Shown: positions 2,751 through 64,000 of the stretch, in pieces | Layout of the letters: every line of letters begins with the position of its first letter | Position numbering within the stretch: position 1 is the stretch's first letter | Notes under the pieces: model-generated | The model's database searches: none | Told to the model about the DNA's origin: nothing | What the model saw: only the letters and a program-made list of their open reading frames with translations | Origin: an uncultured Bacilli bacterium | Lineage (GTDB): Bacteria > Bacillota_I > Bacilli_A > RF39 > UBA660 | Assembly: GCA_947589105.1 (NCBI GenBank) | Contig: CANQBL010000001.1 | Coordinates: 131,973 to 195,972 of the forward strand | Length of the DNA stretch: 64,000 bases | Reading direction: 5' to 3' | Position numbers and translations under genes: made by a program

Positions 2751-3554
2751 ATGCTAAACGATAGAATGTTTAGTTTTTTTTTGCATATATTTAATTGGGT
2801 GATAATATTGTTTAAAGTAGGAGATTTAGTTACAAGAATATCGCATGATAATGACGTAGTTTTTAAAATAGAAAAAATAGAATCCGAAGTGGCTTTTTTA
2901 AAGGGAGTTAATGTTCGATTGTGTGCCGATAGTAATATAAGTGATTTAATCTTAGTAGAAACAAAAAATACTGATGAGGATCGGATATTTTATGAGAAAT
3001 TAGAAAAAATAAGAAATTTTGAAAGAAGCGATTATTTTTATATTCCAGGAAAAATTCTTCATGTTGATGGAGATAGAGAATACCTAAACAGATGTTTAGA
3101 TTTTTATAAAAAAGCTAATGTACTGGCATTTGGAGTTTATTCCCCAGAGAATGAAATGGCTCAAAACATCGAAAAGTATTTAGATGATATAAATCCGGAT
3201 ATTGTTGTTATAACTGGTCATGATTCTGAAATAAAGAAAAATTCAAAATATTTTTCCGAAGCTGTAAAAGCGTGTCGTAAGTATCAAAAAGATTATGACA
3301 AATTGATAATAATTGCTGGAGCTTGTCAATCAGATTACGAACGTCTTATAAAAGCGGGTGCAAATTTTGCATCCAGTCCTAAGAAAATAAATATACATGC
3401 ACTTGATCCAGCAATTATTGCCTTATCTCTTAGTTTATCTGATAAAAATAAAAACGTTGATTTACTATCTCTTCTTGAAAAAACAAGTAATGGTAAAGAC
3501 GGTATTGGTGGGGTTAATACAAGAGGCGTTATGACAACTGGTTATCCTAGGTAA
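2751..3554 (+). CDS. yabG: Sporulation-specific protease YabG
   Basis: 267 aa. Conserved ITGHDS...IIAGACQSDYE segment typical of the YabG peptidase (U57). Synteny ksgA-yabG-veg. Confidence 0.8.
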   Translation: MLNDRMFSFFLHIFNWVIILFKVGDLVTRISHDNDVVFKIEKIESEVAFLKGVNVRLCADSNISDLILVETKNTDEDRIFYEKLEKIRNFERSDYFYIPGKILHVDGDREYLNRCLDFYKKANVLAFGVYSPENEMAQNIEKYLDDINPDIVVITGHDSEIKKNSKYFSEAVKACRKYQKDYDKLIIIAGACQSDYERLIKAGANFASSPKKINIHALDPAIIALSLSLSDKNKNVDLLSLLEKTSNGKDGIGGVNTRGVMTTGYPR

Positions 3555-3564
3555 AGGAGAATAA

Positions 3565-3771
3565 ATGATAAACGAAATAAAAAGAAAAATGAAATATCTT
3601 AAAGGAAAAAAAATAAAAATTTACGTAGATGTAGGAAGAAATAAAAGTGAGGTTTATGAGGGTTTTGTTTTAAATACATACAAAAATATTTGGACATTTA
3701 AAACTGATACAGATGTAAAAAGTTTTGGTTATTCAGATATTTTAATTAATACTGTTATTATAAGTTCATAA
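3565..3771 (+). CDS. veg: Veg protein (biofilm/sporulation-associated small protein, DUF1021)
   Basis: 68 aa. SFGYSDILINTVII resembles B. subtilis Veg SYSYADILTETVEL. It follows yabG. Confidence 0.7.
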   Translation: MINEIKRKMKYLKGKKIKIYVDVGRNKSEVYEGFVLNTYKNIWTFKTDTDVKSFGYSDILINTVIISS

Positions 3772-3788
3772 GATATGAACTTTTTTTT
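3764..3788 (+). terminator. Rho-independent terminator after veg
   Basis: GTTCATA-aga-TATGAAC stem overlapping the veg stop, followed by T8. Confidence 0.6.
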
Positions 3789-3859
3789 GTTGTTTGTTGA
3801 TTTTTCTTCTTATTTGTGGTTAAATTAAAGTGTATATACTAAGATGGAGGATTGACGCA

Positions 3860-6800
3860 ATGAACTCGAGAATGGAAAAGTTTAAAATAAGTTTTAAAGA
3901 TTGGTTAGCTATACAAAAAATAAGAATAAAAAATTTTGTTGAAGAGCATAAATATATATCTTCGTTTATTGGTGTATTTTTGATATCTTCTTTAGTTGCT
4001 TTAATAGTATACGCTGCTGATACAGATAAATATGCTGGTCAAGTTTCGGCTACTGCGTCGGTAACTCAAAAAAGCTCACAATCAACAGAAGAAATAACAA
4101 CTGCTAAAAGTTTTAGTACCATAGTGTACGATGTTGATTATTTGTTATCGATAAGTGATTTGCCTATGGATGAAACAGTTGTAAGGGACGAGGTTGTAGT
4201 CCAAGCCTCTTTTAATGATAAAATCGATGCTGAATGGGTTACATATAATGATATAACCTCAAATTATGAGTTATCAGATGATGGTAGAACTTTAACCGTA
4301 AAACTATATGGAGGTACCAAAGTTGGAACTTCAAACAGTTTGCAATTATATTTAAACACAAGAAACATACCTAATGGTACCGAGTTAAAAACAAACTTTA
4401 AAATCAAAGAATCAACCTCATCAAATTTTACTGAACTTGGAGAAAAAAAGATAACAATAGAAAGTGAAAAAGTTGATTTAGAAACAAAAGTGGTTTCTGG
4501 AACCGCTTATAAATCAAATGATTATAGCGAAGGAAGGTATGCTCCTTTTGGAATATTAGTAGGTTTTGATAAAAGTAAATTGAAAAACCAAAATAGTTTA
4601 GAAGGTTTATATTTTGATTCAAACGTAAGTGTTATTTTAGAAGCAATTCAATCAGTTAATAATGTTAACACTCAAATAGAACTTGAAACTGAAAAACAAC
4701 AATATTTTGGCTTATATGATAAATCAACAGGTTTACTAGGTTCAATGCCTCATTATCAAAGGGATGTTTCTGATTTTTCAGTTTATAACTCAGGAACAGT
4801 TAAAAACCTTACAAAATCAAATAGTGGAGTATCAGGAGAAGTAACTGAAAATACAAATCCAGATTTATATTTAATTGGTGATAAAACAATAAACTTAGAG
4901 CAAGGAGAAGAATACACTGAATATGGTGTATCAGCAACAGATCATGGCTATGATATATGTAAAGAAAGAAATAATTTATGTAAGAAAACGATAACCAAAA
5001 AAGGTAATGGTGAAACTTCAGTTGAAGAAAAAAATATAACTAAAGAAGTTGGAGATTATGTTGTTAGTTATGAGTATACCTCGAAAACAGGTGTTACAAC
5101 GGTTAAAAGAAACGTCAAAGTAACCTCAAAAACAACCGTTAGTGTAGGAGAGGATTCTTATTCATTAAATGGTAATAAAGAAATCACTTTGGTAAAAGGT
5201 GAAAAATATGAAGAAAAAGGTATTAGTAAAAACGGTGTTAATGCTTCGGAATACGAGATATCTATTAAAAAGAATGGTTCGGAAGACCCAATAGAATCGG
5301 TTAATACTAATGAAGTTGGTACTTATACCATTACTTACACGATTAAATCTCAGCCAGAGTTCCAACAACAATCAGCAACTTTAACAAGAACGGTTAAGGT
5401 TGTTGAAAGTTTGACTTATACAAAAGCTCCAACTCTTACTGCAAGCACTATTTACGCACCGTCTGATGGTTCTGTTCTTGATAATCCTTATATAAAAATA
5501 GATTCTCAAGATAAAGAATGTAATTCTGAAAATAAATGTTCGGTAAAATATTATGATCTAGCCTCAAATGAGGAAGTACACTTTGATAAAACAAAGGTAG
5601 GTACTTATAAAGCAGTTTATACGGTAACTGATGAAAATGGTTTTGAAATACAAGCTGAAAATACCATTAACATACAAACTAAATATGATTTTAACATTGA
5701 AGGAATAAAATCAGATGGAAAAATAGATTTGTATGGTGATAATTTTGTTTCACTTGGTTCATATTTTGTAAATGCAAAATCAATTCGTAATGAAGGAGTA
5801 ACAACAGACATTTTAGTAAATTTAACTGCAAGTATTAAAAAAGCAGATGGCGGATTTAACTCTAGTACATCAGATAAAGCTGCTGTTAATAAAAATTATT
5901 CTGCAGGAACGAAAAATAATACACTTTCTTTTAATACTGATGAATCTGGAGATTTACAACGATTATCTAGTAATGATTATTTAGCTTACGGTGAAGAAGT
6001 AATACTAAGATCTAGGTTTACTTATTCAAATGATGGTGATGAGGCGATTAATAAGTTAACAACTACTATTCCAATTTTACCGTTTACAATGGTTGAATAT
6101 ACTTCTAGAATTGAAGATAAAGAACCATACTATATTAATGAAGAATATAATGATAAGGTAAATGTTAAGTATTATGCATGTGAAGTTGATGATTCAAAAA
6201 CAGCTTGTAGTGATTCTGAAGTATCTGAATATGATTCATTTGCTTCATTAAATGATGCTTTAAACTCAAACGAAAATCTTAAATTGTCTTATTTAACTTA
6301 TACATTAGAAAATGTTGCACCAGGATCAATAATTGATTTTAGAGTTAGATTAGTTACTAGTGTTAATAACCAAAAAGATATAATAACTTTAACAACTAAA
6401 TCAGAATATGATGAAAAAGGAGAAAGTAGTTTATCAAATCCTACGGCAATAACTGGTAACGCTTCTATAAATATAACCCCTTTTAAAGCAAGAACAAGAG
6501 TGTATATTGATGAAATGGAGCAAGATGTCATAATAAATGGTGCTAATACTTCTAGCTCTACATGGTCAATATATCCTTCTGTTAGTTTACCGATAGAAGA
6601 GATAAATACTAACGCGGCTGGAATAAATGCGCTAAAAACAGTTACAATTACAGTTGAATTGCCAGAAGGTATTAATTATGTATATGACGAAAGATACAAT
6701 ATACCAAAAGTAAGTGGCAGAACTTTAACATATGTTTTAGAAGGTAAAAAAGTTAATGAATGGATAGATCCTATTTACTTTGTTACAAATTATAATATTG

Positions 6801-8323
6801 ATATTCCTTCTGGAACTGAAAAAGAAGTAAAAGTATTAATTGATGCCGAAACTCCTGATGGTATAAAGGATTCTTCTACTAAAGATTTAAGAACGACGAT
6901 AAGGAAAATAACTTATCAAAATAATGAGAAAATAGCACGTTCACAGTATACAACCACTCCAACAATATCAAAGGAGACCCCTTTTAATATAAGTACAAAA
7001 ATTTATAATAATGATAGTGCTAAAGTTTCACACTCAAATTTGGATATTATAACTTTGCTTCCTTATAATGATATAAGTAATGAAAATAAGACTTATACTG
7101 GAACGTACACAATTTCAAATCTACCTCAAAATACTTTATGTACGGCAGGTCTTCCAAGTTTGATAAAAGACTCTAACTTGCTTTCAGAAGGTGAAATTAT
7201 ATGGGAAGATTGTACTAAATATAAAATAGAAAATAATAGTTACTCTGGGGTTACTGCAATTAAGATTCCATCTATATCTTTACAATCAGATCAAACCTAT
7301 GAACATTCTATAACAATTACTCCTTTTGGAAATAAATCTGATGATAAATATACATTAAAATCTTACTTAGTAATGAATGAAGATAACAGAGTAAGACAAT
7401 TTAATGATGTAACAGTAGAGGTTTTTAGTAAAAAAATAACTGGTATTGTATGGGAAGATTTTGATGATAATGGAATCATGGATAATGAAGAAAAAAGAAT
7501 TTCTGATGTAACTTTAAAATTGTATGATTCTAATACCAATGAGTTTATAACATCAACTCTTTCTGATAAAACTGGAAATTATACTTTATCTGATTTAAAT
7601 CCTGGCACATACTACGTTGTTGCTGAGTACAATACTGCTAAATATGGTTTAACTCAGCCAAATGCATCTTATAATAGGTCAGTTTCTTCTTCGTTTAGCT
7701 CTGTTGATACTGGTATTTCATCTAAAGGTGACGAAATAATAAGTAAAGAAGATAAAAAATTAGAAGATTCACCAACTACTGCAGTAATTAAAACTGATAA
7801 CATTACAATAACTAATGATACTAAAATTGTTAGTGATATTAACTTAGGATTATCACTTAAAAAATCTTATGCGGTAAAATTAACGAAATATGTAAGTAAA
7901 GTTATAACAACAAATAATCTTGGTATTTCAACCATAAAGGACTATGGTAATGTTTCATTGGCTAAGTTAGATGTAAAGGATATAAATAATCTTAGTATAA
8001 AAGTAATTTATACCATAGAATTAGAAAATGTTGGATATTATCCTGGTTATATTTATGCCATAAGAGATTATATTCCTGATGGAATGAAATTTAATGAATC
8101 TTACGAAGAAAATAAGGGCTGGGTAGTAACAAAAGATGATTATTTGGAAAATGATACTTTATCAAATGAATTAGTATATGAAGGAGATAAAAAATATCTT
8201 ACTATAGCTTTTGATATAACTCGTAAAGAGGCCGGATCATTTATTAATTTTGCTTCTGTAGAGGATGATGATTTGCAAATCTTAAGTGTAGCAGCAAATC
8301 AAGGAGGTAATGATAATGAATAA
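3860..8323 (+). CDS. Giant cell-surface protein (about 1487 aa): N-terminal signal-anchor TM, three tandem Ig-like DUF5011-type domains, a CnaB/SdrD-B-type domain, C-terminal DUF11 repeat domain
   Basis: Start set at the ATG at 3860 (GGAGGA plus 8 nt). TM segment FIGVFLISSLVALIVYAA. Three repeats of about 95 aa share the pattern G(D/E)xxYxLxxGxxYxExGxSAxD. CnaB-like segment GIVWEDFDDNGIMDNEE...LKLYDSNT...TGNYTLSDLNPGTYYV. DUF11-like segment LSIKVIYTIELENVGYYPGYIYAIRDYIPDGMKF. No LPXTG. Confidence 0.7.
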   Translation: MNSRMEKFKISFKDWLAIQKIRIKNFVEEHKYISSFIGVFLISSLVALIVYAADTDKYAGQVSATASVTQKSSQSTEEITTAKSFSTIVYDVDYLLSISDLPMDETVVRDEVVVQASFNDKIDAEWVTYNDITSNYELSDDGRTLTVKLYGGTKVGTSNSLQLYLNTRNIPNGTELKTNFKIKESTSSNFTELGEKKITIESEKVDLETKVVSGTAYKSNDYSEGRYAPFGILVGFDKSKLKNQNSLEGLYFDSNVSVILEAIQSVNNVNTQIELETEKQQYFGLYDKSTGLLGSMPHYQRDVSDFSVYNSGTVKNLTKSNSGVSGEVTENTNPDLYLIGDKTINLEQGEEYTEYGVSATDHGYDICKERNNLCKKTITKKGNGETSVEEKNITKEVGDYVVSYEYTSKTGVTTVKRNVKVTSKTTVSVGEDSYSLNGNKEITLVKGEKYEEKGISKNGVNASEYEISIKKNGSEDPIESVNTNEVGTYTITYTIKSQPEFQQQSATLTRTVKVVESLTYTKAPTLTASTIYAPSDGSVLDNPYIKIDSQDKECNSENKCSVKYYDLASNEEVHFDKTKVGTYKAVYTVTDENGFEIQAENTINIQTKYDFNIEGIKSDGKIDLYGDNFVSLGSYFVNAKSIRNEGVTTDILVNLTASIKKADGGFNSSTSDKAAVNKNYSAGTKNNTLSFNTDESGDLQRLSSNDYLAYGEEVILRSRFTYSNDGDEAINKLTTTIPILPFTMVEYTSRIEDKEPYYINEEYNDKVNVKYYACEVDDSKTACSDSEVSEYDSFASLNDALNSNENLKLSYLTYTLENVAPGSIIDFRVRLVTSVNNQKDIITLTTKSEYDEKGESSLSNPTAITGNASINITPFKARTRVYIDEMEQDVIINGANTSSSTWSIYPSVSLPIEEINTNAAGINALKTVTITVELPEGINYVYDERYNIPKVSGRTLTYVLEGKKVNEWIDPIYFVTNYNIDIPSGTEKEVKVLIDAETPDGIKDSSTKDLRTTIRKITYQNNEKIARSQYTTTPTISKETPFNISTKIYNNDSAKVSHSNLDIITLLPYNDISNENKTYTGTYTISNLPQNTLCTAGLPSLIKDSNLLSEGEIIWEDCTKYKIENNSYSGVTAIKIPSISLQSDQTYEHSITITPFGNKSDDKYTLKSYLVMNEDNRVRQFNDVTVEVFSKKITGIVWEDFDDNGIMDNEEKRISDVTLKLYDSNTNEFITSTLSDKTGNYTLSDLNPGTYYVVAEYNTAKYGLTQPNASYNRSVSSSFSSVDTGISSKGDEIISKEDKKLEDSPTTAVIKTDNITITNDTKIVSDINLGLSLKKSYAVKLTKYVSKVITTNNLGISTIKDYGNVSLAKLDVKDINNLSIKVIYTIELENVGYYPGYIYAIRDYIPDGMKFNESYEENKGWVVTKDDYLENDTLSNELVYEGDKKYLTIAFDITRKEAGSFINFASVEDDDLQILSVAANQGGNDNE

Positions 8324-10415
8324 TAAATTAAAAAAAATATTATCTTTATTTGTATTAATAATAGTAACCTTCTTTATTTTTAATGATTCTTTAATTGCAG
8401 CTACCGCTCAAATACGATATGTAAAACCAACCTCAGCCAAAAATTTTCCAAATTTATCATATACTTTAAAAAGTGGTAGTAAAACAATATCAACTAAAAA
8501 TATTCAGCAATTTGCATTTATGTACAAAGATACTGCTTCTCAACAAGTTTATTGCGTAGAGCCAGATGCCCAATTAATAAATAGTGGCACTCATAATACT
8601 GGTTCTTTAGCAGATTATAATGGGAAATATATAAATACTGCCGATAAAAAAACTTTACTACAATACGTTTTAACCTTCGCACCGAAGTTAGCAAACGTAA
8701 CAACTAAAGTATCATTAGCAGATACTTCTAAAGTACTCGCAGCTCAAGCTTTAATTTGGCAAATTGGAGTAGGAGAAGTTAAATTTAATACTAATAAAAC
8801 AAAATTATCGCTTTCTGGAGATTTTTATAATAAAATAAAGAGTAATACAAATAGTGATGTTAAGAAAATTTATAGTGAGTATAACACAATTGTAACGTCG
8901 GTTAACGAAACATTTTTAAGTGCTCCAACAGGTTTTGGTACGGCATCTAAATGTGATACGGTAGCATTATCTTATGATTCAAAAACAGGTAGTTTTACTA
9001 AAACAATAAACTCAACAAAGTTTCAGTATTATGATGTATCTACTTCTCAAAATGGATTAACCATATCTAAAACTAAAAATTCAATAACTATTTCTAGTAA
9101 AGCTCCAATTAATCAAACAAATGCTAAGAGTGTTAAAATAAGTGTTCATAATAAAAATAAAGGAACTGCTCAAGCTTTTTACCATACATCACAACAGGAC
9201 GTTGTTTCAATAGTTGGTACAACTTTGGATAGATATATAAAAGTATATACACCAAAGTATCAATTAAAAATTACTAAAACTGCATCACTTGATGGCAAAA
9301 AACTAAGTGGGGTTAAGTTTAATGTCTATAATGATAATAAGTGCACAACTTTATTAGGTACCATTACAACAGATAAAAATGGAGAAGCTACATATCAAAA
9401 TATACCAGCTCCCGGCACATATTGTTTAAAAGAAGTAAAATCATCAACACCAGCTGGTTACGAAGAAAACTCAGAATCAATTTCAATAAAGGTAAACGAT
9501 TCAGATATTGCTGGTTCAAAAAGTTATGCTGCTAAAACTATAACTAATAAAAATAAAGAATTTAATTTAACTAAAAAAACAATAGATGAAAATGGTAAAG
9601 TTGTTACTCTTAACGATGGATGTGGAACAAATAATTATACCGGACCAGAGTTTGAGATTAAAGAAGGTACAAATAATTTGTATTTTAAGGAAATAAAACC
9701 TGGATATTATGACATTTCTAGTAAAGATACCGAAGGTGCGACAACAAAGCTTAAAACTTGTAATGGAGAGTTTAAAGTATATACGTTACCTAATTGTAAT
9801 TACACAATATCAGAAACTAAAGCACCAGAAGGGCTTACTTTACCATCGGAGCCAACAAAATCTGTAAATGTTTGTGGAGCAGATAAAAACGTATCTTTCA
9901 CAAATGGTTTCGCGGGATTAGAGTTTCAAAAAAAAGATGAAGATGGTAATTTTGTAGAAGGTGGTAAATTTTCTCTTCAGAAAAATATAAATAATATTTA
10001 TCGTGATATTCTATTAAAGCAAGTAAAAGAAGGATATTATATATATGATGCTAATTTAAAGGAATCTGATAAAGATGCAACATATTTAATTCTTACCGAC
10101 CAAGGAATGGCTCATATTACAAAGTTGCCTCCTGGAGAGTATAGAATTGTTGAAAAGGAAGCTCCAGAAGGTTTTGAACTTATTCAAGATAAGGATTCAA
10201 AAGCTATAGTAACTATAAAAGACAGTGATAAAAATGGTTATTATATAGTAGAAATGATTGACCAAAAAGTTAAGAAAAATGGAAGTGATTCTTCTGCAGA
10301 ACTAGTAGTAACAATTACTACAGGAAGAAAAGTTCCTAATTATATATTTATAATATCTGCTTTATTAGTTACGTTAATAGTAGTTATAATTTTAAGAAAA
10401 AGGGTAAAAAAATAG
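8316..10415 (+). CDS. Secreted surface protein (about 699 aa) with a candidate thioester-like N-terminal domain, two CnaB/SpaA prealbumin-fold domains, and a C-terminal TM plus basic tail
   Basis: Translationally coupled to the upstream gene by a 14-nt overlap. Start set at the ATG at 8316 (GGAGG plus 8 nt). Signal peptide present. Candidate thioester residues YCVEP and AAQALIW. SpaA/CnaB-like segments KFNVYNDNK...DKNGEATYQNIPAPGTYCLKEV and KFSLQKN...LPPGEYRIVEKEAPEGF. C-terminus IFIISALLVTLIVVIILRKRVKK without LPXTG. Confidence 0.65.
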   Translation: MNNKLKKILSLFVLIIVTFFIFNDSLIAATAQIRYVKPTSAKNFPNLSYTLKSGSKTISTKNIQQFAFMYKDTASQQVYCVEPDAQLINSGTHNTGSLADYNGKYINTADKKTLLQYVLTFAPKLANVTTKVSLADTSKVLAAQALIWQIGVGEVKFNTNKTKLSLSGDFYNKIKSNTNSDVKKIYSEYNTIVTSVNETFLSAPTGFGTASKCDTVALSYDSKTGSFTKTINSTKFQYYDVSTSQNGLTISKTKNSITISSKAPINQTNAKSVKISVHNKNKGTAQAFYHTSQQDVVSIVGTTLDRYIKVYTPKYQLKITKTASLDGKKLSGVKFNVYNDNKCTTLLGTITTDKNGEATYQNIPAPGTYCLKEVKSSTPAGYEENSESISIKVNDSDIAGSKSYAAKTITNKNKEFNLTKKTIDENGKVVTLNDGCGTNNYTGPEFEIKEGTNNLYFKEIKPGYYDISSKDTEGATTKLKTCNGEFKVYTLPNCNYTISETKAPEGLTLPSEPTKSVNVCGADKNVSFTNGFAGLEFQKKDEDGNFVEGGKFSLQKNINNIYRDILLKQVKEGYYIYDANLKESDKDATYLILTDQGMAHITKLPPGEYRIVEKEAPEGFELIQDKDSKAIVTIKDSDKNGYYIVEMIDQKVKKNGSDSSAELVVTITTGRKVPNYIFIISALLVTLIVVIILRKRVKK

Positions 10416-10436
10416 CAAATTATTGCTATTTTTTTG
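10406..10436 (+). terminator. Rho-independent terminator after the surface-protein operon
   Basis: A-tract, then TAGCAA-atta-TTGCTA stem including the stop codon, then T7. Confidence 0.55.
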
Positions 10437-10487
10437 TATTATATGGTAAAATTAAGTTGTTAAATAATAACTAAAAGGAGAGTTTAT

Positions 10488-10745
10488 ATGGAAATAACTA
10501 GTGTATCAGTTCAAAAAGAAACTAAAGAAAATTCCAGAATGATAGGTTATGCAGAGATAATTTTTGATGATTGTTTAAAGGTAAATGGTATTAGAATAAT
10601 AAAAGGAAATACAAAAATTTTTGCAGCAATGCCAAATAAAAAGTTACAAGATGGAAAATATAAAGACTACGTTCATCCAATTAATTCAGAATTAAGGAAA
10701 AAAATAGATGAAGCTATAGAAGAAGCTTATAATAAAGCGGAATAA
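10488..10745 (+). CDS. spoVG: Septation/sporulation regulator SpoVG
   Basis: 85 aa. IRIIKGNTKIFAAMPNKK...YKDYVHPINSELRKKIDEAI closely matches the SpoVG family. Confidence 0.9.
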   Translation: MEITSVSVQKETKENSRMIGYAEIIFDDCLKVNGIRIIKGNTKIFAAMPNKKLQDGKYKDYVHPINSELRKKIDEAIEEAYNKAE

Positions 10746-10772
10746 TATGGTAGTATATTATTCTTTTTTTTT
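10740..10772 (+). terminator. Rho-independent terminator after spoVG
   Basis: Perfect 9-bp stem GAATAATAT-ggtagt-ATATTATTC followed by T9. Confidence 0.6.
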
Positions 10773-10796
10773 AATATAATTTATCAGGAGGTCTTT

Positions 10797-11087
10797 ATGG
10801 ATAAAGATACTGATAAAGAGGAATTAATGAATCATAATATAGTGATTACGCAAAGACAAAATGTAACAATTAGTGGTATAACAAAAATAGAAAGTTTTGA
10901 TAGTGAAGAGTTTATTCTTGAAACGAATAGTGGACCATTAGGCATTAAAGGAAGAGAACTTGAGATAGTAAAATTAGATACCTATGATGGTACTATTGTT
11001 ATAAAAGGTATTATAGATGGTTTTTCTTATTTAGATGTTGGTAAGAGTAGAAAAGAAGATTCTATGATATCGAGGTTATTTAAATAA
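10797..11087 (+). CDS. yabP: Sporulation protein YabP
   Basis: KIESFDSEEFILET matches B. subtilis YabP HVDSFDSEEFLLET. 96 aa. Followed by yabQ and divIC. Confidence 0.85.
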   Translation: MDKDTDKEELMNHNIVITQRQNVTISGITKIESFDSEEFILETNSGPLGIKGRELEIVKLDTYDGTIVIKGIIDGFSYLDVGKSRKEDSMISRLFK

Positions 11088-29417: not shown

Positions 29418-31367
29418 TTAGCCGTTTTTTTTGGTAGTTTTACCTTTGTAACCTGGTTCAGTACCTTTTATATAATATAAAATTTTTTTAAGTTTTGAAT
29501 CATTAGTTGCAATTTTACCCGTTTGAACATCAGTTAATACCCCAACAACGTTGTCTGGTTTTTCATACCAACTTTGTTTTTTATCTCTTAGATAGCTTTC
29601 TATTGTATCCACCCATATATTTTTTGAATATTTATATTCCTTGCTTGATAATTTTCTATTATCATCATAACCTGTCCATACTCCAATAACAATATCTGGA
29701 TTATAACCAACGGTCCATAAATCATAATCTGTAGTACCACTTTTTACCGCGTATTTTTTGGTTATTTTAGGTGCTATTGAAGCACAAGTGGGTGCGGTAT
29801 AACTAGTAAGAGAAATATCGTACGTATTTGATAATAACTCACTTAAAATATAAGTGTATGACTCATTTAATATTTTTTCTTTTTTGTTTTTATATTCATA
29901 TATTATATCTCCGTTTCCATCTTCTACCTTTCTTATTAAATGTCCTTTAACACTGTAACCTGTGTTTGATACGGCGGCATAGGATGTTACAAACTCTGTT
30001 ATAGATAGTTCGTTTGTTCCAAGAGGAAGAGAGGCATTAGCTTCTAACTTGCTTGTAATTCCCATTTTTTTAGCATATTTAACAAGCATATCTTCTCCTA
30101 AAAACAAATGTGTTTTAATAGCATATATGTTATCCGAATAACTAATTGCTAAAGCCATTGTAATGTTTGAGTTTGGATATATATTACCGTAATTGCTAGG
30201 AGAATATGAATGTCCATTATCTAACGTGAAAGTTGTTGGTTTACTAAGAAAAGTAGTAGCGGCTGTAAGACCGTTTTCAAGCGCGGCATAATAAAGTAGT
30301 GGTTTCATTGTTGAACCTACTTGTCTTTTTGATTGGATTGCTCTATTATATTGTGATTTAGAATAATCCCTTCCTCCTGCTAAAGCTATTATTTCTCCAT
30401 TATTAGGATCCATCATAACCGCAGAAACCTGCATCTCGTTTTTTCCTTCTAAATTAGTTTTAATACTTTCTTCTAATTTAGTTTGCGCTTCTATATCAAG
30501 GGTAGTGTATATTTTTAAACCTTCCTGTCTAATTGTATTATCACTTACTATTTTAAGAGATTCTAGTTCGCGAATAACCGCGTCTTGATAATACATAATT
30601 GTAGATAGATTAAGATTTTCCTTTTTTCCATAATACGTAAGTTTTATATCTAAAGTTTCTTCCATTGTTTTTTTGGAAATTATTTTATTATTTACCATTG
30701 CCTGTAATATTTGTTTTTGTCTTTTTTTAGCGGCCTTTTCATCATTTAATGGTGAATAGTTATTAGGGGATTTTGGAATTCCTGCTAATATGGTACTTTC
30801 TGCTAAATTAAGGTCTTTAGAAGATTTATTAAAATAATATAATGCCGCGTTTTCTATTCCTAAAATACCATTACCATAATTAATTGTGTTTAAATAACCT
30901 TCTAATATTTCATCTTTAGAATATTGTGTTTCAAGCTTAAAAGCGTACCATGCCTCTTTTATTTTTCTTTCCCAGGTTTTATCAAATGTTAAAAATAAAT
31001 TACGGGCATATTGCTGTGTAATAGTTGATGCTCCTTCTTTTAAATCTTTTGACCTAATATTAACAATGGTTGATTTTATTATTCTTGGAATATCAAATCC
31101 AGGATGATTATAAAAGTTTTTATCTTCAGAATATATTGTTGCATTTATTAAATCCTTTGATATATCTTTTAATTTTATCCATTTTTTAGTACCGTTATTA
31201 CCCTCATAAAAGCTAATATTTTGTTTATCGTACATATATATACTATTTGAGTTTTTAATATCTATTTTACTGCCATATTTAGCACATAAGAATAAAATAG
31301 AGTATGAAAAGCAAAAAATAAGCATTAAAGCGATTACTATTTTAATGGTAATTTTTAATTGCCTCAT
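29418..31367 (-). CDS. Class A penicillin-binding protein (bifunctional transglycosylase/transpeptidase, PBP1A-like)
   Basis: GT51 motifs (EDKNFYNHPGFD, GASTITQQ), transpeptidase SxxK (STMKP) and KSGT. N-terminal TM. Confidence 0.85.
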   Translation of the reverse strand: MRQLKITIKIVIALMLIFCFSYSILFLCAKYGSKIDIKNSNSIYMYDKQNISFYEGNNGTKKWIKLKDISKDLINATIYSEDKNFYNHPGFDIPRIIKSTIVNIRSKDLKEGASTITQQYARNLFLTFDKTWERKIKEAWYAFKLETQYSKDEILEGYLNTINYGNGILGIENAALYYFNKSSKDLNLAESTILAGIPKSPNNYSPLNDEKAAKKRQKQILQAMVNNKIISKKTMEETLDIKLTYYGKKENLNLSTIMYYQDAVIRELESLKIVSDNTIRQEGLKIYTTLDIEAQTKLEESIKTNLEGKNEMQVSAVMMDPNNGEIIALAGGRDYSKSQYNRAIQSKRQVGSTMKPLLYYAALENGLTAATTFLSKPTTFTLDNGHSYSPSNYGNIYPNSNITMALAISYSDNIYAIKTHLFLGEDMLVKYAKKMGITSKLEANASLPLGTNELSITEFVTSYAAVSNTGYSVKGHLIRKVEDGNGDIIYEYKNKKEKILNESYTYILSELLSNTYDISLTSYTAPTCASIAPKITKKYAVKSGTTDYDLWTVGYNPDIVIGVWTGYDDNRKLSSKEYKYSKNIWVDTIESYLRDKKQSWYEKPDNVVGVLTDVQTGKIATNDSKLKKILYYIKGTEPGYKGKTTKKNG

Positions 31368-37272: not shown

Positions 37273-38601
37273 ATGAAAAATATACCTAATAAAAGAAAAA
37301 AAGATGTTACTGCAGCTTTTATGTCTTTATTTTTATCAGGTGCCTTATTAGTAGGTGGAACTTTTGTTGGAAAAATTTTTAAAAAATCAAAAGCTCCTGT
37401 AAATTCAAAACCAGAAACAACTATGGTTACACCAGAATTAAGTGAATTGGTTTTAAGTGAAGGTTTTGATATAAATGATCCAAAAGCGGTAGATAAAAGG
37501 GCGAAAGATATATATAATTTATCCGAAAAGGAATATACGGTATTGGACATAAAAAACATGATTTATTTACTAAATGAAATGTATGATAATATCGCTTTTC
37601 CAAAAAATGTAAAAACAAACGATCAAAAATACATGTACTTTTACGATGTATTATCATTAACGCTAGGACGAGTTTTAAGTGATTACGTAGCAGATTATGA
37701 GGTTTCATTACATCAAATTCTTGATGATGAAAATCTTACATTTGTAGGTAATACTGGTTCTGTTCCTTGTGCTTACATGTTTATGCCTAGTGATAGTGAG
37801 ACTAAAAAACTTGCTATAGATATTGCTAAGATTTATTATGAACAACGTACTAACATAAGAAACGGAAAAAAAGCTTCAATGAGTGTTACTGCTAATGATT
37901 ATTATAAATTACTTGAAAAGACAAAAAAATCAAATTTAAAGACTGGTGATAAATTATTAATATTTGAGCAGTTTGGTGCTACAAAATCGCTTTTTACTCC
38001 ATTTTTAAGTGAAAAGTATGCTGAAGAACTTGATGCTGTTTCAAGATCTATGGCAACTAGCATGAACAAATTATTTGAAACTGCTGCTGAAAACTTAGAT
38101 GTACCAGCTGAATTATTTGATGGAACTTGTGATGAGAAGATTGAAAAACTAACTGAAGAGTATAGAAGTAAAGACTTGCAAGATGCTAAAGAAAGAGTTA
38201 CAAATGCTTCTATTGCTAGTGAAACAAGTGTAGTAAATCAAGGTGGAAGTAAGGTTAGTGGTTCTAAAGGAAAACAAGAAGTAATTCAAGGTGAGGTAAC
38301 TACAAGAGTTACTACTAGTGAATTTGTTGTTGAAATACCTAATGAAGGTACTTATACACAATACATTCCAGGAGGAGAGGTTGTGGAAGAAAACACAACT
38401 AAATCATCAGCAAAACCTTCTACAACAACTTATGTTGATGATGAGAATATTCCTGTAATGGATGATAAAGAATTTTTTGCTCAAGCAAGTTATGATGATA
38501 TTAAAGATTATAAAAAGAAAACTTCTTCAATTGGATATGGTTTGATGGCAACAGGAACATTAGGACCAGTTCTATTTAAAAAGAAGAAAAGAAGTAAATA
38601 A
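37273..38601 (+). CDS. Hypothetical membrane-anchored protein (442 aa) with N-terminal TM and a C-terminal hydrophobic segment plus KKKKRSK tail
   Basis: N-terminal FMSLFLSGALLVGGTFVG. C-terminus SIGYGLMATGTLGPVLFKKKKRSK. No LPXTG and no known domain recognised. Confidence 0.45.
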   Translation: MKNIPNKRKKDVTAAFMSLFLSGALLVGGTFVGKIFKKSKAPVNSKPETTMVTPELSELVLSEGFDINDPKAVDKRAKDIYNLSEKEYTVLDIKNMIYLLNEMYDNIAFPKNVKTNDQKYMYFYDVLSLTLGRVLSDYVADYEVSLHQILDDENLTFVGNTGSVPCAYMFMPSDSETKKLAIDIAKIYYEQRTNIRNGKKASMSVTANDYYKLLEKTKKSNLKTGDKLLIFEQFGATKSLFTPFLSEKYAEELDAVSRSMATSMNKLFETAAENLDVPAELFDGTCDEKIEKLTEEYRSKDLQDAKERVTNASIASETSVVNQGGSKVSGSKGKQEVIQGEVTTRVTTSEFVVEIPNEGTYTQYIPGGEVVEENTTKSSAKPSTTTYVDDENIPVMDDKEFFAQASYDDIKDYKKKTSSIGYGLMATGTLGPVLFKKKKRSK

Positions 38602-47121: not shown

Positions 47122-48381
47122 CTAAATTGGAGTGTTAAGCCAGTTAATAATTGGATTTAGTTTACTACCTGTATAATAAGCCTTTTTATTGATTACTAAA
47201 TCGAATTCGCCAACATATTCAACAATTTTATTGGATAATTCTCTTTTTAATTGATTATCATATTCTGTATTATTAAATTCTCCAGTCATGCCATTAAAAT
47301 CAATAATTTCATAGCCTTGTTTTGCAAATTCTTGAATTAATTGCCATCTAAGCAAGTATTCAGGATTTTGCTCTTTAAAATTATTATTTACCCCACTTGC
47401 TATTATTGTTACGGTTTTTCCATATTTTAAAACTGCAACACCAGCTATTACTAAGCCACTTGGATATTGTTGAAATAAATTTATAGCTTTTAACATGTTC
47501 GTTTTATATTTTGATACTAGTTCATCAGATTTTAATTTTTCATTGATAATCATTTCTTTATTTGGATTATTCCAATCTTGCATTTGAGCGTTTAATTCGC
47601 TATTTCTTTGTTCTTCTTTTTCATATAGAGTTTTACTTGAATTTACGTATGATACTGGCTCTAACTTTGTAAAATAAACTTCGAAGCCACCATTTTTACC
47701 AAAAAACTCATAATAATCTAAATAATACTCTAATGGAGGAACTGGTTTATTTATCAATGTAAATAATAAATTAATATCATTTGTGGTTCCTTTGTATACT
47801 TTGTTACCCTTTTTAGTAGATTCTTTTATTTTTTCCCTAGCTTCTTTTGATATGGAATTGTATAAGGTTATAATGTTTTTATTTAAGGTAACGAGCGAAT
47901 TCCACCTTGGTTTACTAGCTTCCATTTTATTATTATATCCCATGTGGATGTATCCTAGTTTTTGTAGTTTTTGAACAAATGACGTGTTATTTTGTACATC
48001 TATTTTTTCACTGCCATCAAAATTATGTTCTTTATATACAATTAAAGGATCTACTTTAAGATATGTAAAACCTCTTTTAGATAAAAAATCTTTTAAACTA
48101 TTTGTAAATTCGGTTACTAAATCTTCGTTATTCCAATCAATTAAAAAACCTCTAGGTGCATATCCCATTTTCCTTTTATTGTTTTTTTCATTTTTTACTA
48201 TCATTAAAGTTGCGGCTTTTATATTGTTTACCTCGTCAACTAAACCTAGATAATATGAATTATAACCATGTTTATTCATAAATTTACCATAATTACTAGT
48301 TTGATAAAAGTTTTGGTTAGGATGTGATATAGCAAATTGATCAAATTTTATCTCATCAAGAAGCACTATTTGCATAAACAT
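47122..48381 (-). CDS. FemAB-family peptidoglycan interpeptide-bridge aminoacyltransferase
   Basis: 419 aa. N-terminal FemAB-like segment (FYQTSNYGKFMNKHGYNSYYLGL...MGYAPRGFLIDW...YLKVDP) and coiled-coil insert typical of the FemA/FemX family. Confidence 0.7.
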   Translation of the reverse strand: MFMQIVLLDEIKFDQFAISHPNQNFYQTSNYGKFMNKHGYNSYYLGLVDEVNNIKAATLMIVKNEKNNKRKMGYAPRGFLIDWNNEDLVTEFTNSLKDFLSKRGFTYLKVDPLIVYKEHNFDGSEKIDVQNNTSFVQKLQKLGYIHMGYNNKMEASKPRWNSLVTLNKNIITLYNSISKEAREKIKESTKKGNKVYKGTTNDINLLFTLINKPVPPLEYYLDYYEFFGKNGGFEVYFTKLEPVSYVNSSKTLYEKEEQRNSELNAQMQDWNNPNKEMIINEKLKSDELVSKYKTNMLKAINLFQQYPSGLVIAGVAVLKYGKTVTIIASGVNNNFKEQNPEYLLRWQLIQEFAKQGYEIIDFNGMTGEFNNTEYDNQLKRELSNKIVEYVGEFDLVINKKAYYTGSKLNPIINWLNTPI

Positions 48382-56119: not shown

Positions 56120-58081
<1,962 letters not shown>

Positions 58082-59719: not shown

Positions 59720-60646
59720 ATGATTATATTTCTAGGAATTGTTGGGGAACTTGCTACTGTTATAGGTAGTGTTGTTATAACTCTTAATGCTGGACTTGAT
59801 TCAATATTAGAGATTTCAAAAAATGGTTACAAAATTGAAAAAAGTGTGTTAGATGAATTTCAAAAGAAACAAGCTGAAGAAAAAAAACAAAAATCTAATT
59901 TAGCTAATAAAATTTTGGGAACTGTTTTATTACTTGTACCTGGTATTAATTTGATAAATGCCAGTGTAAAAGGTGCTAAAGTTAAAAAATCAGTAATGAA
60001 TGATCCACAAATTAAAGAAGCCATTGTTCCTATGACTGAAGAAGAAAAAGAACAATATGCTAAAATGGAAGGTAAATTACAAAAATTAACATTTACTGCT
60101 TTTACTGCATCAAAAGAAAGCGAAGAAGAATTTTTCGGATTTATTGGGAAAAGACCTATTATTGTAGATCACGGATTAACTTCTTTATATTATGAACCAT
60201 TAATGTCATTGGATTATACATTAGATGAAGTAAAAAGATTAAATGAGGCAACTACTTATTCATATAGAATTGGTAAAATTGGTGATAAAAATGTTGCAAT
60301 TATTGGTATTCCAAATCCAGATAGTCCTGTTAGTAGAATTCAATTAAAATCAGAGGATTATAAAATAACACACACTTACGAAAAAATGACTGAAGAAGAA
60401 GCACAAGACAAGACATTTACAGTATATCCATTTATGTCAGAAACAAATGAAAAGGTACAAGAAGTTGTTGAAGAAATTAAACAATCACGAATTGATTTAG
60501 CTACTAAAGCTAATCTAGAAGCCTTACAAACACACTCTATATTTGAACCAGAAGTTATTCCAATAGAAACTGAACAAGTTTTATCAGATGAACAACAAGG
60601 GCCAAGATTAGTAAAAACAATACGCCCACAAAACGAGAAAAAGTAA
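59720..60646 (+). CDS. Hypothetical protein (308 aa), two N-terminal hydrophobic segments plus an acidic soluble domain
   Basis: GGGAGG RBS. Hydrophobic segments IIFLGIVGELATVIGSVVITL and ILGTVLLLVPGINLI. No recognised domain. Confidence 0.45.
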   Translation: MIIFLGIVGELATVIGSVVITLNAGLDSILEISKNGYKIEKSVLDEFQKKQAEEKKQKSNLANKILGTVLLLVPGINLINASVKGAKVKKSVMNDPQIKEAIVPMTEEEKEQYAKMEGKLQKLTFTAFTASKESEEEFFGFIGKRPIIVDHGLTSLYYEPLMSLDYTLDEVKRLNEATTYSYRIGKIGDKNVAIIGIPNPDSPVSRIQLKSEDYKITHTYEKMTEEEAQDKTFTVYPFMSETNEKVQEVVEEIKQSRIDLATKANLEALQTHSIFEPEVIPIETEQVLSDEQQGPRLVKTIRPQNEKK

Positions 60647-60867
60647 AAAATGAATTGCTACTTTTTCTTTTTTTTGATAAACTATAATTAGTGATTGATT
60701 CTTAAACCAGTTACCTTTGGAAAAAGTTGTAGATAACTTTCTCAACCGCACCAGATTGATACCAAACTCTAACTATTATAGTTCGGGTTTTATAATGTTT
60801 TAATGTATGTTATAATTTTTATATATTGAATTAATATATTTTCTACTTTAGAAAATAAAATAGCTTA

Positions 60868-61776
60868 TTGACCAATCAATATATAAAAGAAGAGGTGCTG
60901 TTTATGCTTGTAAAAAATTGTATTAATTTTATTATAATTGGAATAACCTTGCTTTCAATACCAATACTTATTTATTCTATAAAGAACAAAAATAAAAGTA
61001 TTTTAATTTTAGATACAATGTATATAGTATATTTATTTTTAAGTATAGCTATTTTGCCTAATATTTTAGGCTTAGATCGTGGATTAGAAGTTTTATTTAC
61101 ATATCTCATGTCTTTTATAGCAGGAATAATCTATATAGTATCTATTGTAGTGTGCAAAAAAAAGATTAAGAAAAATAATGATAAAAGTATGAAATCCAAT
61201 AAAATAAATTTTGTAACTAGTGTATTAATAATTTTACCAATTTTATTATTTTCCTTTAGTTTTTTAAGAGAATGTTACTTAATAAAGAAAAGTGATTTAA
61301 TAATTGAATCTAACTATCAAGACGGAATTATTATTTCCGAAACATCTTGGTATGCAATTTCAGAAAATTTTTGTAAAGAAATTACTATTAATTTACCAAT
61401 TCTCAACCCAAATAATAAAAATATAAAATATTATACATACTATGTTTATTTTAAAAACGATTCTTACGAAATAGAAAGTTATATTGATTCTGAATTGAAG
61501 CATATTGATGAACAAATGATAAAAAAAATTTTGTTGGATGCGAAAAATAATCATAGTAATTTAAATAAAAAATATTCGAATTTTGATTATATAATTAATA
61601 ATGCTACTATAACTTATTTTGAAAATAGTGGATATTATCATGTATCAATAGGATATACTAGAAATGGTAACGGAGGTATGTCAGTTGTAAATGAATTGAT
61701 ATATAAAAATGATAAATATATTGGTGAATTATTAATACAAGGGGATATTAAATCAGTAACTTATATAGAAAAATAA
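60868..61776 (+). CDS. Hypothetical polytopic membrane protein (302 aa) with a C-terminal extracytoplasmic domain
   Basis: About four TM segments in the first 150 aa, then a Tyr/Asn-rich soluble domain. Island cargo. Confidence 0.45.
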   Translation: MTNQYIKEEVLFMLVKNCINFIIIGITLLSIPILIYSIKNKNKSILILDTMYIVYLFLSIAILPNILGLDRGLEVLFTYLMSFIAGIIYIVSIVVCKKKIKKNNDKSMKSNKINFVTSVLIILPILLFSFSFLRECYLIKKSDLIIESNYQDGIIISETSWYAISENFCKEITINLPILNPNNKNIKYYTYYVYFKNDSYEIESYIDSELKHIDEQMIKKILLDAKNNHSNLNKKYSNFDYIINNATITYFENSGYYHVSIGYTRNGNGGMSVVNELIYKNDKYIGELLIQGDIKSVTYIEK

Positions 61777-61855
61777 AAAAGATTACTTTTTAAATCTAAA
61801 TTACGAGATAAAAATAAAACTACTTATCAAAATTAATTTGAAAGTAGTTTTATTT

Positions 61856-62278
61856 TTACCATCTTGTATTATCAATTATTAAATCTTTAGGTAAAGCTAA
61901 TAATTCATTATGTTTAACATTAACTATTTTGTTTGCTATATTAAAAATAGTAAAAATAGATAGTTCATCAAAGTTATTCATTTTTTCCATCATTAACTCC
62001 CAAATTTCATCACTTCTTATTAAATCTAGTGTCTTATATCCTTTTTCAGTCAAACATTTAATTTTATGTTCTTTAAATACATCATTATCATCATAGCTAG
62101 TTTTATCAAGCACAGTTAAATAATGTTCTTTATTAAACAAAGTTACTATAGTTAATACATCTTCAATAGAAAAATCTGATATTTTTTCCTGAAGCTGTGC
62201 AACAGTTAGAGTTTCGCCATAAGGAATTTTTTCAACTTCTAATAAAATTTTTCTAGCACAATTATTATTTATTTTCAT
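61856..62278 (-). CDS. Hypothetical small protein (140 aa), possible winged-helix/YjcQ-like fold
   Basis: Opposite strand to the rest of the island. N-terminus MKINNNCARKILLEVEK... resembles small wHTH phage/island proteins. Weak call. Confidence 0.35.
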   Translation of the reverse strand: MKINNNCARKILLEVEKIPYGETLTVAQLQEKISDFSIEDVLTIVTLFNKEHYLTVLDKTSYDDNDVFKEHKIKCLTEKGYKTLDLIRSDEIWELMMEKMNNFDELSIFTIFNIANKIVNVKHNELLALPKDLIIDNTRW

Positions 62279-62412
62279 AAAATCATTTTCTCCTTCAAAA
62301 TAATTATAACATAATTAGCTTAAAAGTTTTAATAATTTTAAAATATATGATATTATTGTTAACAGATGATTAATATTTTTTTTTACAGAAAAATCTAGAA
62401 GTAGGTAGTTTT

Positions 62413-63573
62413 ATGAGACAAAATTTTTTGACAGAATATTTTTATAAAAAAGAATATAAGTATATGTATTTAAGTATATTTTTATATAACTTTGCAAATG
62501 CATTAAGTGAAACTTTTGGAACGGTAATGTTATATAAAGCTGGATTACCTATACATATAATATTGTTAATATATGGTATTAGATTTTTGATTATGGGTTT
62601 AATAACTCCTTTATTTATTACTATATCTAATAAAGTTGGTGTTGCAAAATGTGTGCTAGTTTCAAATATATTTAATATCATTTATGCATACTTTTTATTA
62701 ATTAACAAAAATTTAACATCAAATATAATCATATTTGTAATAGCTATGGGCTTAAATGGGTTATCTAACCCATCTTCAGATTCATTATCTAGTAAATATG
62801 TAGACACTAATCATAGAGGAAAGTTTAATAGTTTATATAGTATTAGTAAAATATTAGGTACAGTATTAGCAAGCTGTTTGGTTGCTTGGGGAGTTATAAA
62901 TAATAATACATTTATATTATTTATTATACTTTCAATTTTCTTTTTTCTTCAATATTTAGCAATATTAAAAATAGACTACAAACCTAAGAAAAAAACAAGT
63001 ATATTTAAAGCTAGTATAAAATATTTAATTAATAGTAAGAGTAAATATAAAATTATATATGCTTTAAGAACTAACCATATAATAGAAAGACAGTTTGTTC
63101 CATTATATTTATATTTAATACTAAAGGATTTTAAAGCTTTTTCTTTAGTTACTATAGTATCACTTTTATTTCAAACTATAACTATTATTTTAATAGGAAA
63201 ATATACAGATAAAAATATTAAAAAATCAAATGATTTAGTTACTATTATTAAAGGAAGTATTACATTAGTATATTTATTTATAAAAAATAAATTTATTATT
63301 TCAATAAATAAAACTGTTAGTGATAATGTATCAAAAGTATATGAAACATCAATACAAACTTCAATTCAAAATATTATTAAAGAATCAAAAGAAGATAATG
63401 ATTTATTATCTTCTGTAGGACAAATGAGTTTGTGCTTTACTGAAGTTATTATATTTTTAATATTATCAATATTAACAAAATTCATAGGGCAGAAAGTATT
63501 CTATGTAATATTTATATTATCTATAATTTCAACGGTTCTTATAAATATTAACATTAAAAAGGAGTTTATTTGA
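62413..63573 (+). CDS. Polytopic membrane protein, MFS-transporter-like (about 12 TM)
   Basis: 386 aa, highly hydrophobic. The loop after TM2-3 contains D...RGKF, which resembles MFS motif A. Island cargo. Confidence 0.45.
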   Translation: MRQNFLTEYFYKKEYKYMYLSIFLYNFANALSETFGTVMLYKAGLPIHIILLIYGIRFLIMGLITPLFITISNKVGVAKCVLVSNIFNIIYAYFLLINKNLTSNIIIFVIAMGLNGLSNPSSDSLSSKYVDTNHRGKFNSLYSISKILGTVLASCLVAWGVINNNTFILFIILSIFFFLQYLAILKIDYKPKKKTSIFKASIKYLINSKSKYKIIYALRTNHIIERQFVPLYLYLILKDFKAFSLVTIVSLLFQTITIILIGKYTDKNIKKSNDLVTIIKGSITLVYLFIKNKFIISINKTVSDNVSKVYETSIQTSIQNIIKESKEDNDLLSSVGQMSLCFTEVIIFLILSILTKFIGQKVFYVIFILSIISTVLININIKKEFI

Positions 63574-64000
63574 TAAAATATAGTACTCTATTTATAGAAT
63601 TGAATTGTTTAATTATTTGTTTATTGTTAACTTTTACATTACTTTAACTATCGCTTCTTTACTGTCTTAAAAGAGATTACTGTTAAATCTATAATCTTTA
63701 TTACATCAATTGGTTTCATTTTAGAAATCTTAATAATTGGTAATAAGCTTGATATAATTGTTACAATAAATTCTATTAAATAAATCAATATAATTTTCTT
63801 ATTCTTAGTATGAAAGGAGTTAAAATTATATTTATTTCCGACACAAAAAAGCGTTAAGAAGTATGCAAAATATAAATGTTACTTGAAATTACATGCGTTG
63901 ATAAAGTACTTTTTTTATGATATATTAAGCAAGTAATATGCTTTGTATAAAAAATATCTGATTTTAAAAAATTAGCTACTATTTATAAAATTTAAATTAG

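Follow-up and report, generated by a model that had tools for sequence, protein, structure and literature searches.

Does the gene at positions 8310 to 10415 of a 64,000-nucleotide stretch of DNA from an uncultured Bacilli bacterium (contig CANQBL010000001.1, positions 131,973 to 195,972; hereafter the window) encode an adhesin with an internal thioester, and if so, which of its residues would form the bond? By means of thioester domains (TEDs), Gram-positive bacteria attach covalently to their targets, and to our knowledge work on them has so far been almost entirely on pathogens and one conjugative plasmid. An earlier reading of the DNA letters alone (the original prediction) proposed that the protein carries a TED in which a Cys in VYCVEPDAQ is bonded to a Gln in AAQALIWQIG, followed by two CnaB domains. 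We find that the domain is a real, very divergent class II TED, that its bonding Gln is predicted to lie elsewhere, and that the stalk has three domains rather than two. Overall, we consider it very likely that the open reading frame (ORF), starting at 8310 or 8316, encodes a Sec-exported adhesin of the thioester-isopeptide-ester (TIE) type with a class II TED, a predicted Cys82-Gln296 thioester and a three-domain stalk. Residues are numbered throughout from 8310, which is 2 higher than the real number if the ATG at 8316 is the start.

A divergent class II thioester domain

The two motifs of the original prediction are present as described, with Cys82 in the context QQVYCVEPDAQ (codon 8553-8555) and Gln146 in the context LAAQALIWQIG (codon 8745-8747), 64 residues further on. 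The window has 68 stop-to-stop frames of 100 codons or more (21,246 amino acids). Among them, the pattern [TSA]Q..[LIVM]W is present at one site and [YFL]C[VILMA][DEQ] at four, and the combined pattern is found solely in the TED protein. That the pair is unique in the window and appears in 0 of 20,000 shuffles of this protein argues that it is not a chance occurrence.

Membership of the TED family is established by transitive homology together with the fold. A word-indexed homologue search with residues 30-317 returns no relatives at E<=0.001, single-sequence phmmer against the PDB finds no TED, only matches to the stalk and a chance match to carboxypeptidase Y inhibitor, and an exact-sequence look-up of the protein gives no record. 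An NCBIfam scan of the protein likewise shows no TQXA or TED family, only a weak SpaH/EbpB pilin match on the stalk. Exhaustive phmmer with residues 30-317 against 1.84 billion representatives, on the other hand, reveals 24 relatives, the best at E=5.8e-44, and 7 of the 10 relatives scanned pass the Pfam TED (PF08341) gathering score of 22 bits, with 28.5-44.7 bits. Among those above this cut-off is P0002, which shares 38% identity with the query domain along about 270 residues (E=1.7e-26), and a TED match at E<=0.01 is found in 16 of 18 aligned domain sequences. A profile built from the family matches SaTIE-TED (6fx6_A, PDB 6FX6) at E=4.2e-10, in two segments. A cluster look-up of six relatives yields no name from any source.

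Across the 18 aligned domains, identity to the query drops to 15%, and the only invariant positions are C82, Q146, W150, G155 and Q296, all five of which are retained in seven syntenic orthologues. The Cys was expected to be conserved if it mattered, and Cys82 is indeed kept without exception by the 23 homologues that span it (P0007 is without this region) and by the seven syntenic orthologues.

The fold leads to the same place. Residues 28-326 were modelled with AlphaFold2 from an 18-sequence alignment, without templates. The model has a mean predicted local distance difference test score (pLDDT) of 91.6 and a predicted template modelling score (pTM) of 0.88, and shows the three-dimensional fold of a TED. 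In this model Cys82 terminates a β-strand (model residues 51-55), Gln146 and Trp150 lie within a long helix (model residues 109-127), about eight strands (model residues 190-264) stand between the last helix (155-174) and the bonding candidate (Gln269 in model numbering), and Gln296 directly follows this β-sandwich, beside a short strand. The modelled layout is that of class II as described by Miller et al. 2018, in which a β-sandwich of about 75 residues is inserted between helix α3 and the Gln-bearing hairpin (PMC6194298). SaTIE-TED is alignable over 226 of 237 residues, as compared to 139-148 for class I TEDs (SfbI-TED, 5A0L; Cpa, 2XI9; CpTIE-TED, 5A0G), which are without this insert, have an extra helix α0 (PMC6194298) and can be aligned to about half of the domain. 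Fold-match figures are 12.9 for CpTIE-TED, 12.6 for Cpa, 12.3 for SfbI-TED, 11.6 for BaTIE, 11.2 for FNE, 9.8 for PnTIE-TED and 9.2 for EfmTIE86-TED; the model of the full-length protein finds its matches in SaTIE-TED, a CnaB2 domain and BaTIE. That the N-terminal domain is a thioester domain, as first proposed, is thus borne out alike by sequence profiles, by conservation and by the fold.

The predicted thioester pair

In TEDs the thioester Cys is found in a [YFL]CΦζ motif and the bonding Gln belongs to a motif of its own, the weak ΦQζΦΦ, which lies on a C-terminal β-strand, while TQxxΦW is an α-helical motif that adjoins the bond and is conserved in most TEDs, not all (PMC4450167, PMC6194298). 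The family profile lays these motifs out in order on SaTIE-TED. Its first segment places aYCiePg on AFCIEPN and iAaQaLvWE on IATQMLIWE, and its second places sslQdlv on GNAQKVG, so that Cys82 aligns with chain residue C47, which is Cys296 of SaTIE, and Gln296 aligns with chain residue Q218, which is Gln467 (numbering converted from the construct Gln254-Gly502, in a chain of 253 residues; PMC6194298). Cys296 and Gln467 are bonded in the SaTIE crystal (PMC6194298), and because the family profile places Cys82 and Gln296 on this crystallographically bonded pair, these two residues, 214 positions apart, are the predicted thioester pair. Class II Cys-Gln spacings, solved or modelled, are 171 in SaTIE and 204 in EfmTIE86 (PMC6194298) and 188 in TIEpLS20 (PMC8092201).

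This assignment changes how several remarks of the original prediction are to be read, which had merged the weak ΦQζΦΦ motif of the bonding Gln with the TQxxΦW helper motif. The spacing that had seemed too short is an artefact of the wrong partner, the predicted spacing being in keeping with the class II range. The motif that had been called an imperfect TQxA does have Ala in place of Thr (AQALIW), but as a TQxxΦW helper it no longer calls for that caveat. Of the domain, the proposed range of 8316-8900 takes in only the N-terminal 60%, leaving the third conserved motif, QQDVV, outside.

The three motifs differ in how strictly they are kept. Gln296 is invariant in A2, A3 and A4 (our labels) and in the orthologues, and the position that precedes it, Gln here, is L, F, Y, S or K in relatives, so Φ is only loosely kept. 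Gln146 and Trp150 are also invariant. Thr occupies the first position of the helper motif in three of eight syntenic orthologues, and the distant relatives P0012-P0024 all keep it except P0017, which has Ser.

Several observations weigh against a functional class II TED in this protein. The Pfam TED family matches residues 80-189 with 18.4 bits when the whole protein is scanned and 21.8 bits for the isolated domain, in either case just below the gathering score; TIGR03934 (TQXA_dom), the other profile suggested for the check, gives no match at E<=1. The residue before Gln296 is Gln and not hydrophobic, a loose fit to ΦQζΦΦ, the Thr of TQxxΦW is Ala, and the C-terminus has no LPXTG, unlike most TIE proteins. 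Taken alone, this sequence comes close to the absence of any TED profile hit, an outcome that the original prediction had named as fatal and that the homologues and the fold overturn.

The sub-threshold score and the non-canonical residues in two motifs would also suit a TED fold that forms no thioester or makes no use of it, and that serves in non-covalent ligand binding or as a structural cap; some TEDs tested by Walden et al. were unreactive with the ligand tried (PMC4450167). We consider this quite improbable: Cys82 and Gln296 remain invariant while the rest of the domain falls to 15-36% identity, a pattern hard to explain without a bond, and the bonding Cys and Gln are the sole fully conserved TED residues according to Walden et al. 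2015 (PMC4450167). The compact domain of the original prediction, with Cys82 bonded to Gln146, has in its favour that both residues are invariant across the family and that the TQxxΦW Gln adjoins the thioester in solved TEDs (PMC6194298). It is nonetheless extremely unlikely: the bonding Gln of every characterised TED is that of the C-terminal β-strand and never the one on the helix, bonds form without need of the Gln and Trp of the helical motif (PMC6194298, PMC4450167), the profile puts Gln146 on the SaTIE helper motif, and this pairing would leave the second invariant Gln, Gln296, unexplained. The preferred pair is therefore Cys82 and Gln296; the corrected bonding Gln matters for any mutagenesis or protein engineering of this domain.

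Signal peptide, stalk and anchor

The features of the protein and its upstream partner are collected in Table 1.

Table 1. Positions of the TED gene, its encoded features and the upstream partner gene within the window.
Feature	Position	Strand	Details
Upstream partner	3830..8323	+	1,497 amino acids; N-terminal membrane anchor, Bact_surface_Ig-like x3, SdrD_B (Pfam)
TED gene ORF	8310..10415	+	701 amino acids
Sec signal peptide, residues 1-30	8310..8399	+	K-rich n-region, hydrophobic core, LIA before the predicted cleavage site, AT after it
Class II TED, residues ~31-317	8400..9260	+	Upper lobe (β-barrel and helices) with inserted β-sandwich
[YFL]CΦζ motif, YCVE	8550..8561	+	Cys82 (8553-8555), predicted thioester Cys
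TQxxΦW helper motif, AQALIW	8742..8759	+	Gln146 and Trp150, helix α2; not the predicted bonding Gln
Weak ΦQζΦΦ motif, QQDVV	9192..9206	+	Gln296 (9195-9197), predicted thioester Gln
SpaA/CnaB stalk domain 1, residues 318-418	9261..9563	+	Pfam SpaA 61.9 bits; putative isopeptide Lys323-Asn413, catalytic Glu375
SpaA/CnaB stalk domain 2, residues 419-535	9564..9914	+	Pfam SpaA 28.6 bits; putative isopeptide Lys422-Asn532, Glu502
SpaA/CnaB stalk domain 3, residues 536-655	9915..10274	+	Pfam SpaA 38.1 bits; putative isopeptide Lys541-Asp651, Glu615
C-terminal anchor	10275..10415	+	Conserved SAELVVTITTGRK, TITTG (10311-10325), membrane helix (10341-10394), RKRVKK, stop

An AAGGAGG sequence at 8301-8307 lies 2 nucleotides before the ATG at 8310 and 8 nucleotides before the ATG at 8316. 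Because of this 8-nucleotide spacing, and because the orthologues begin at the Met equivalent to ATG 8316, the latter is likelier to be the true start. The signal peptide is of typical Sec type, MIMNNKLKKILSLFVLIIVTFFIFNDSLIA followed by AT, with cleavage predicted after LIA30.

Behind the TED we find three SpaA/CnaB domains where two CnaB domains had been claimed, and each exceeds the Pfam SpaA (PF17802) cut-off of 23.1 bits when scanned alone. In all three, a Lys close to the first strand and a Glu are conserved, and an Asn or Asp lies close to the last strand. K422, E502 and N532 of domain 2 are invariant, as are K541, E615 and D651 of domain 3 among the orthologues, with D or N at position 651 in more distant homologues. 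Two of the acceptor positions switch between N and D among relatives, as is expected of isopeptide acceptors, and judging from these residues a Lys-Asn or Lys-Asp isopeptide is probable in each stalk domain. The top PDB match of a whole-protein profile is BaTIE (6fwv, E=3.2e-16). When the protein is compared with plasmids by tblastn, the stalk (residues ~319-660) is matched and the TED never is; the nearest likeness of the stalk is to proteins on Bacillus and Enterococcus plasmids. Its signal peptide, distal TED and CnaB/SpaA isopeptide stalk together give the protein the thioester-isopeptide architecture that had been proposed for it.

Domain 2 has a further peculiarity. Its four cysteines, C438, C484, C496 and C522, are invariant in eight syntenic orthologues, C438 being absent from some distant homologues, and may make two disulfides, which would be unusual for CnaB/SpaA domains.

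The C-terminus consists of SAELVVTITTGRKVPNY, an 18-residue hydrophobic helix and RKRVKK. The LPXTG_anchor model TIGR01167 scores 13.7 bits against a cut-off of 15.9, and a residue count places its TG on T671-G672. The T-G-R core and its flanking residues are conserved throughout the subfamily, in the pattern SAEL-V-TIxTG-RK followed by the membrane helix and basic tail (10275-10412); distant relatives have SPKTG, NPRTG or VYTGD at this position. The sortase TLxTC signature is absent within the 64-kb window. This C-terminus might work as a sorting signal of variant type, or simply as a membrane anchor.

Elsewhere in the window, a 442-amino-acid protein (37273-38601, + strand) has an N-terminal hydrophobic segment and ends in GYGLMATGTLGPVLFKKKKRSK, by its look another C-terminal anchor; it matches no Pfam family at E<=0.001. 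The presence of a class A penicillin-binding protein (29418-31367, - strand) and a FemAB-family protein (47122-48381, - strand) argues that the organism builds a peptidoglycan wall with interpeptide bridges, although some related metagenome-assembled genomes are labelled 'Mollicutes'.

Taking these elements together, we propose the following course of events. The protein would be exported by the Sec pathway and its signal peptide cleaved. On folding, the thiol of Cys82 would attack the side-chain amide of Gln296 with loss of NH3, forming the internal thioester autocatalytically, and the three stalk isopeptides would form as well. The thioester would be buried beside helix α2, with Gln146 and Trp150 of AQALIW packing against it, and the three SpaA/CnaB domains would make a rigid stalk that displays the TED at a distance from the cell. 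The thioester could then be attacked by a nucleophile of the target, typically the ε-amine of a Lys, to give a Gln296-target isopeptide and free Cys82, leaving the bacterium covalently tethered to its target, possibly reversibly. TITTG, the membrane helix and the basic tail would retain the protein in the envelope, whether as a plain anchor or as a non-canonical sorting signal. SfbI-TED sets the precedent for such chemistry, in that it forms a Gln-Lys isopeptide with Lys100 of fibrinogen Aα that is lost in a Cys-to-Ala variant (PMC4450167). Reversibility and pH dependence of the TED bond are reported in a preprint (10.64898/2026.02.05.703941).

Known counterparts, gene neighbourhood and the likely target

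SaTIE-TED of S. aureus (PDB 6FX6; Miller et al. 2018) is the solved domain on which the bond prediction is modelled, yet its identity to the TED here is only 12-14%, its Cys-Gln spacing is 171 as opposed to 214, and its helper motif reads TQMLIW rather than AQALIW. In SaTIE the TED is internal, starting at residue 254, and the protein also has ester domains and an LPXTG anchor. BaTIE (BasC/BA5258 of Bacillus anthracis, PDB 6FWV) is a full-length class II TIE protein that resembles ours mainly in the stalk; it carries an LPATG sortase signal, whereas the protein here has TITTG followed by RK, and four conserved cysteines in stalk domain 2. TIEpLS20 (p34 of the B. subtilis plasmid pLS20) is alike in having a class II TED (Cys68, Gln256) followed by a CnaB stalk (PMC8092201), a likeness drawn from its published description. 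It has no LPXTG, is sortase-independent and is drawn with a transmembrane segment (PMC8092201; Gago-Cordoba et al. 2021). TIEpLS20 is plasmid-borne, encoded within a conjugation operon and required for mating, whereas the present gene is on the chromosome, keeps its synteny across species and has as its partner a gene for a 1,497-amino-acid surface protein.

A related B. subtilis plasmid protein (L008; NZ_CP061871.1, 75096-77249), annotated as 'SpaA isopeptide-forming pilin-related protein', has FAYCLQPG, ATQMAVW and YQNIV in order; it ends in LPNTS, its gene adjoins a class D sortase gene, and by its motifs it looks like an unannotated class II TED. The comparison is weakly significant (6.7 bits) and the shared motif order (C69, ATQMAVW, YQNIV) serves as an illustration only.

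From these comparisons, we have here a new member of the class II TED/TIE family, unannotated and divergent to an unusual degree, and not a new kind of system. The protein is mildly unusual in its sub-threshold sequence, the Ala of its helper motif, its TIxTG-RK anchor and its core-genome pairing with a giant partner. The advance is modest and brings no new principle. It does show the same machinery, in a form predicted to be intact, in an uncultured gut lineage of low GC, where it belongs to the core genome and sits next to a giant partner. Because the curated thresholds of Pfam and NCBIfam miss this subfamily, and the relatives checked are unnamed, adhesins of this kind are under-counted among gut metagenomes.

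The upstream partner has no C-terminal anchor, and most of its length is without family assignment. Its stop codon (8321-8323) overlaps the start of the TED gene, the ATG at 8316 lying 8 nucleotides inside the partner ORF, and as the TED gene starts inside the partner ORF, the two are probably co-transcribed and translationally coupled. A promoter and terminator scan of 3400-10800 finds no more sites than in shuffles and is uninformative on operon structure.

In a synteny scan of one genome per species, seven loci hold the gene pair, in gut metagenome-assembled genomes labelled uncultured Bacilli, Mollicutes or Clostridium, and the order in all seven is tatD, rsmA, yabG, the large protein, the TED protein, spoVG, yabP, yabQ and divIC, the flanking genes being named by eye from their translations without a family-library scan. 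Flanking genes are 60-95% identical to those of the window, compared to 47-58% for the two surface proteins. Comparing the eight orthologues pair by pair gives an average identity of 36% in the TED, 63-78% in the three domains of the stalk and 70% in the anchor. From these alignments, the TED, the part predicted to face the ligand, diverges fast while the bond residues stay fixed.

In a more elaborate reading, the TIE protein and the 1,497-amino-acid partner form a lineage-specific, core-genome two-protein adhesion apparatus of an uncultured clade of gut Bacilli, with a rapidly diversifying thioester warhead, a conserved stalk and, in place of LPXTG, a new sorting signal, SAEL-V-TIxTG-RK. In such an apparatus the signal might be read by a sortase of new specificity or anchor the protein independently of sortase, and the Ala-for-Thr exchange of the helper motif might tune the reactivity of the thioester. 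We regard this as speculative, and would not place much weight on it.

A functional thioester adhesin need not be aimed at a host, and its target might instead be a bacterial cell or surface polymer, in aggregation or mating contact, or a surface of the sporulation stage. TIEpLS20 offers a model, as a class II TED protein without LPXTG and with a transmembrane segment that acts in bacterial cell-cell contact (PMC8092201); the stalk here is most like Bacillus and Enterococcus plasmid proteins, and the TED gene sits among the sporulation-associated genes yabG, spoVG, yabP and yabQ. Such a target is nonetheless unlikely in our judgement. No conjugation-like gene is found among the flanking ORFs read in the window and the seven loci, which were named by eye, and because none of them resembles a conjugation gene, the context does not suggest a pLS20-type mating role. 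The locus is chromosomal, its flanks are conserved housekeeping genes, and neighbouring genes by themselves are weak grounds for linking the protein to sporulation. That the TED evolves fast on a stalk that is conserved fits diversifying ligand recognition, but is silent on which ligand. A covalent adhesin of the TIE type, with the Cys82-Gln296 bond predicted above, is the reading that we retain.

Further along the window, a large serine recombinase with Resolvase, Recombinase and Zn-ribbon domains is encoded at 56234-58081 (+ strand). Downstream of it, at 60000-64000, the ORFs are without obvious identity and the G+C content falls to 20-24%; the region may mark the border of a prophage or an integrated mobile element.

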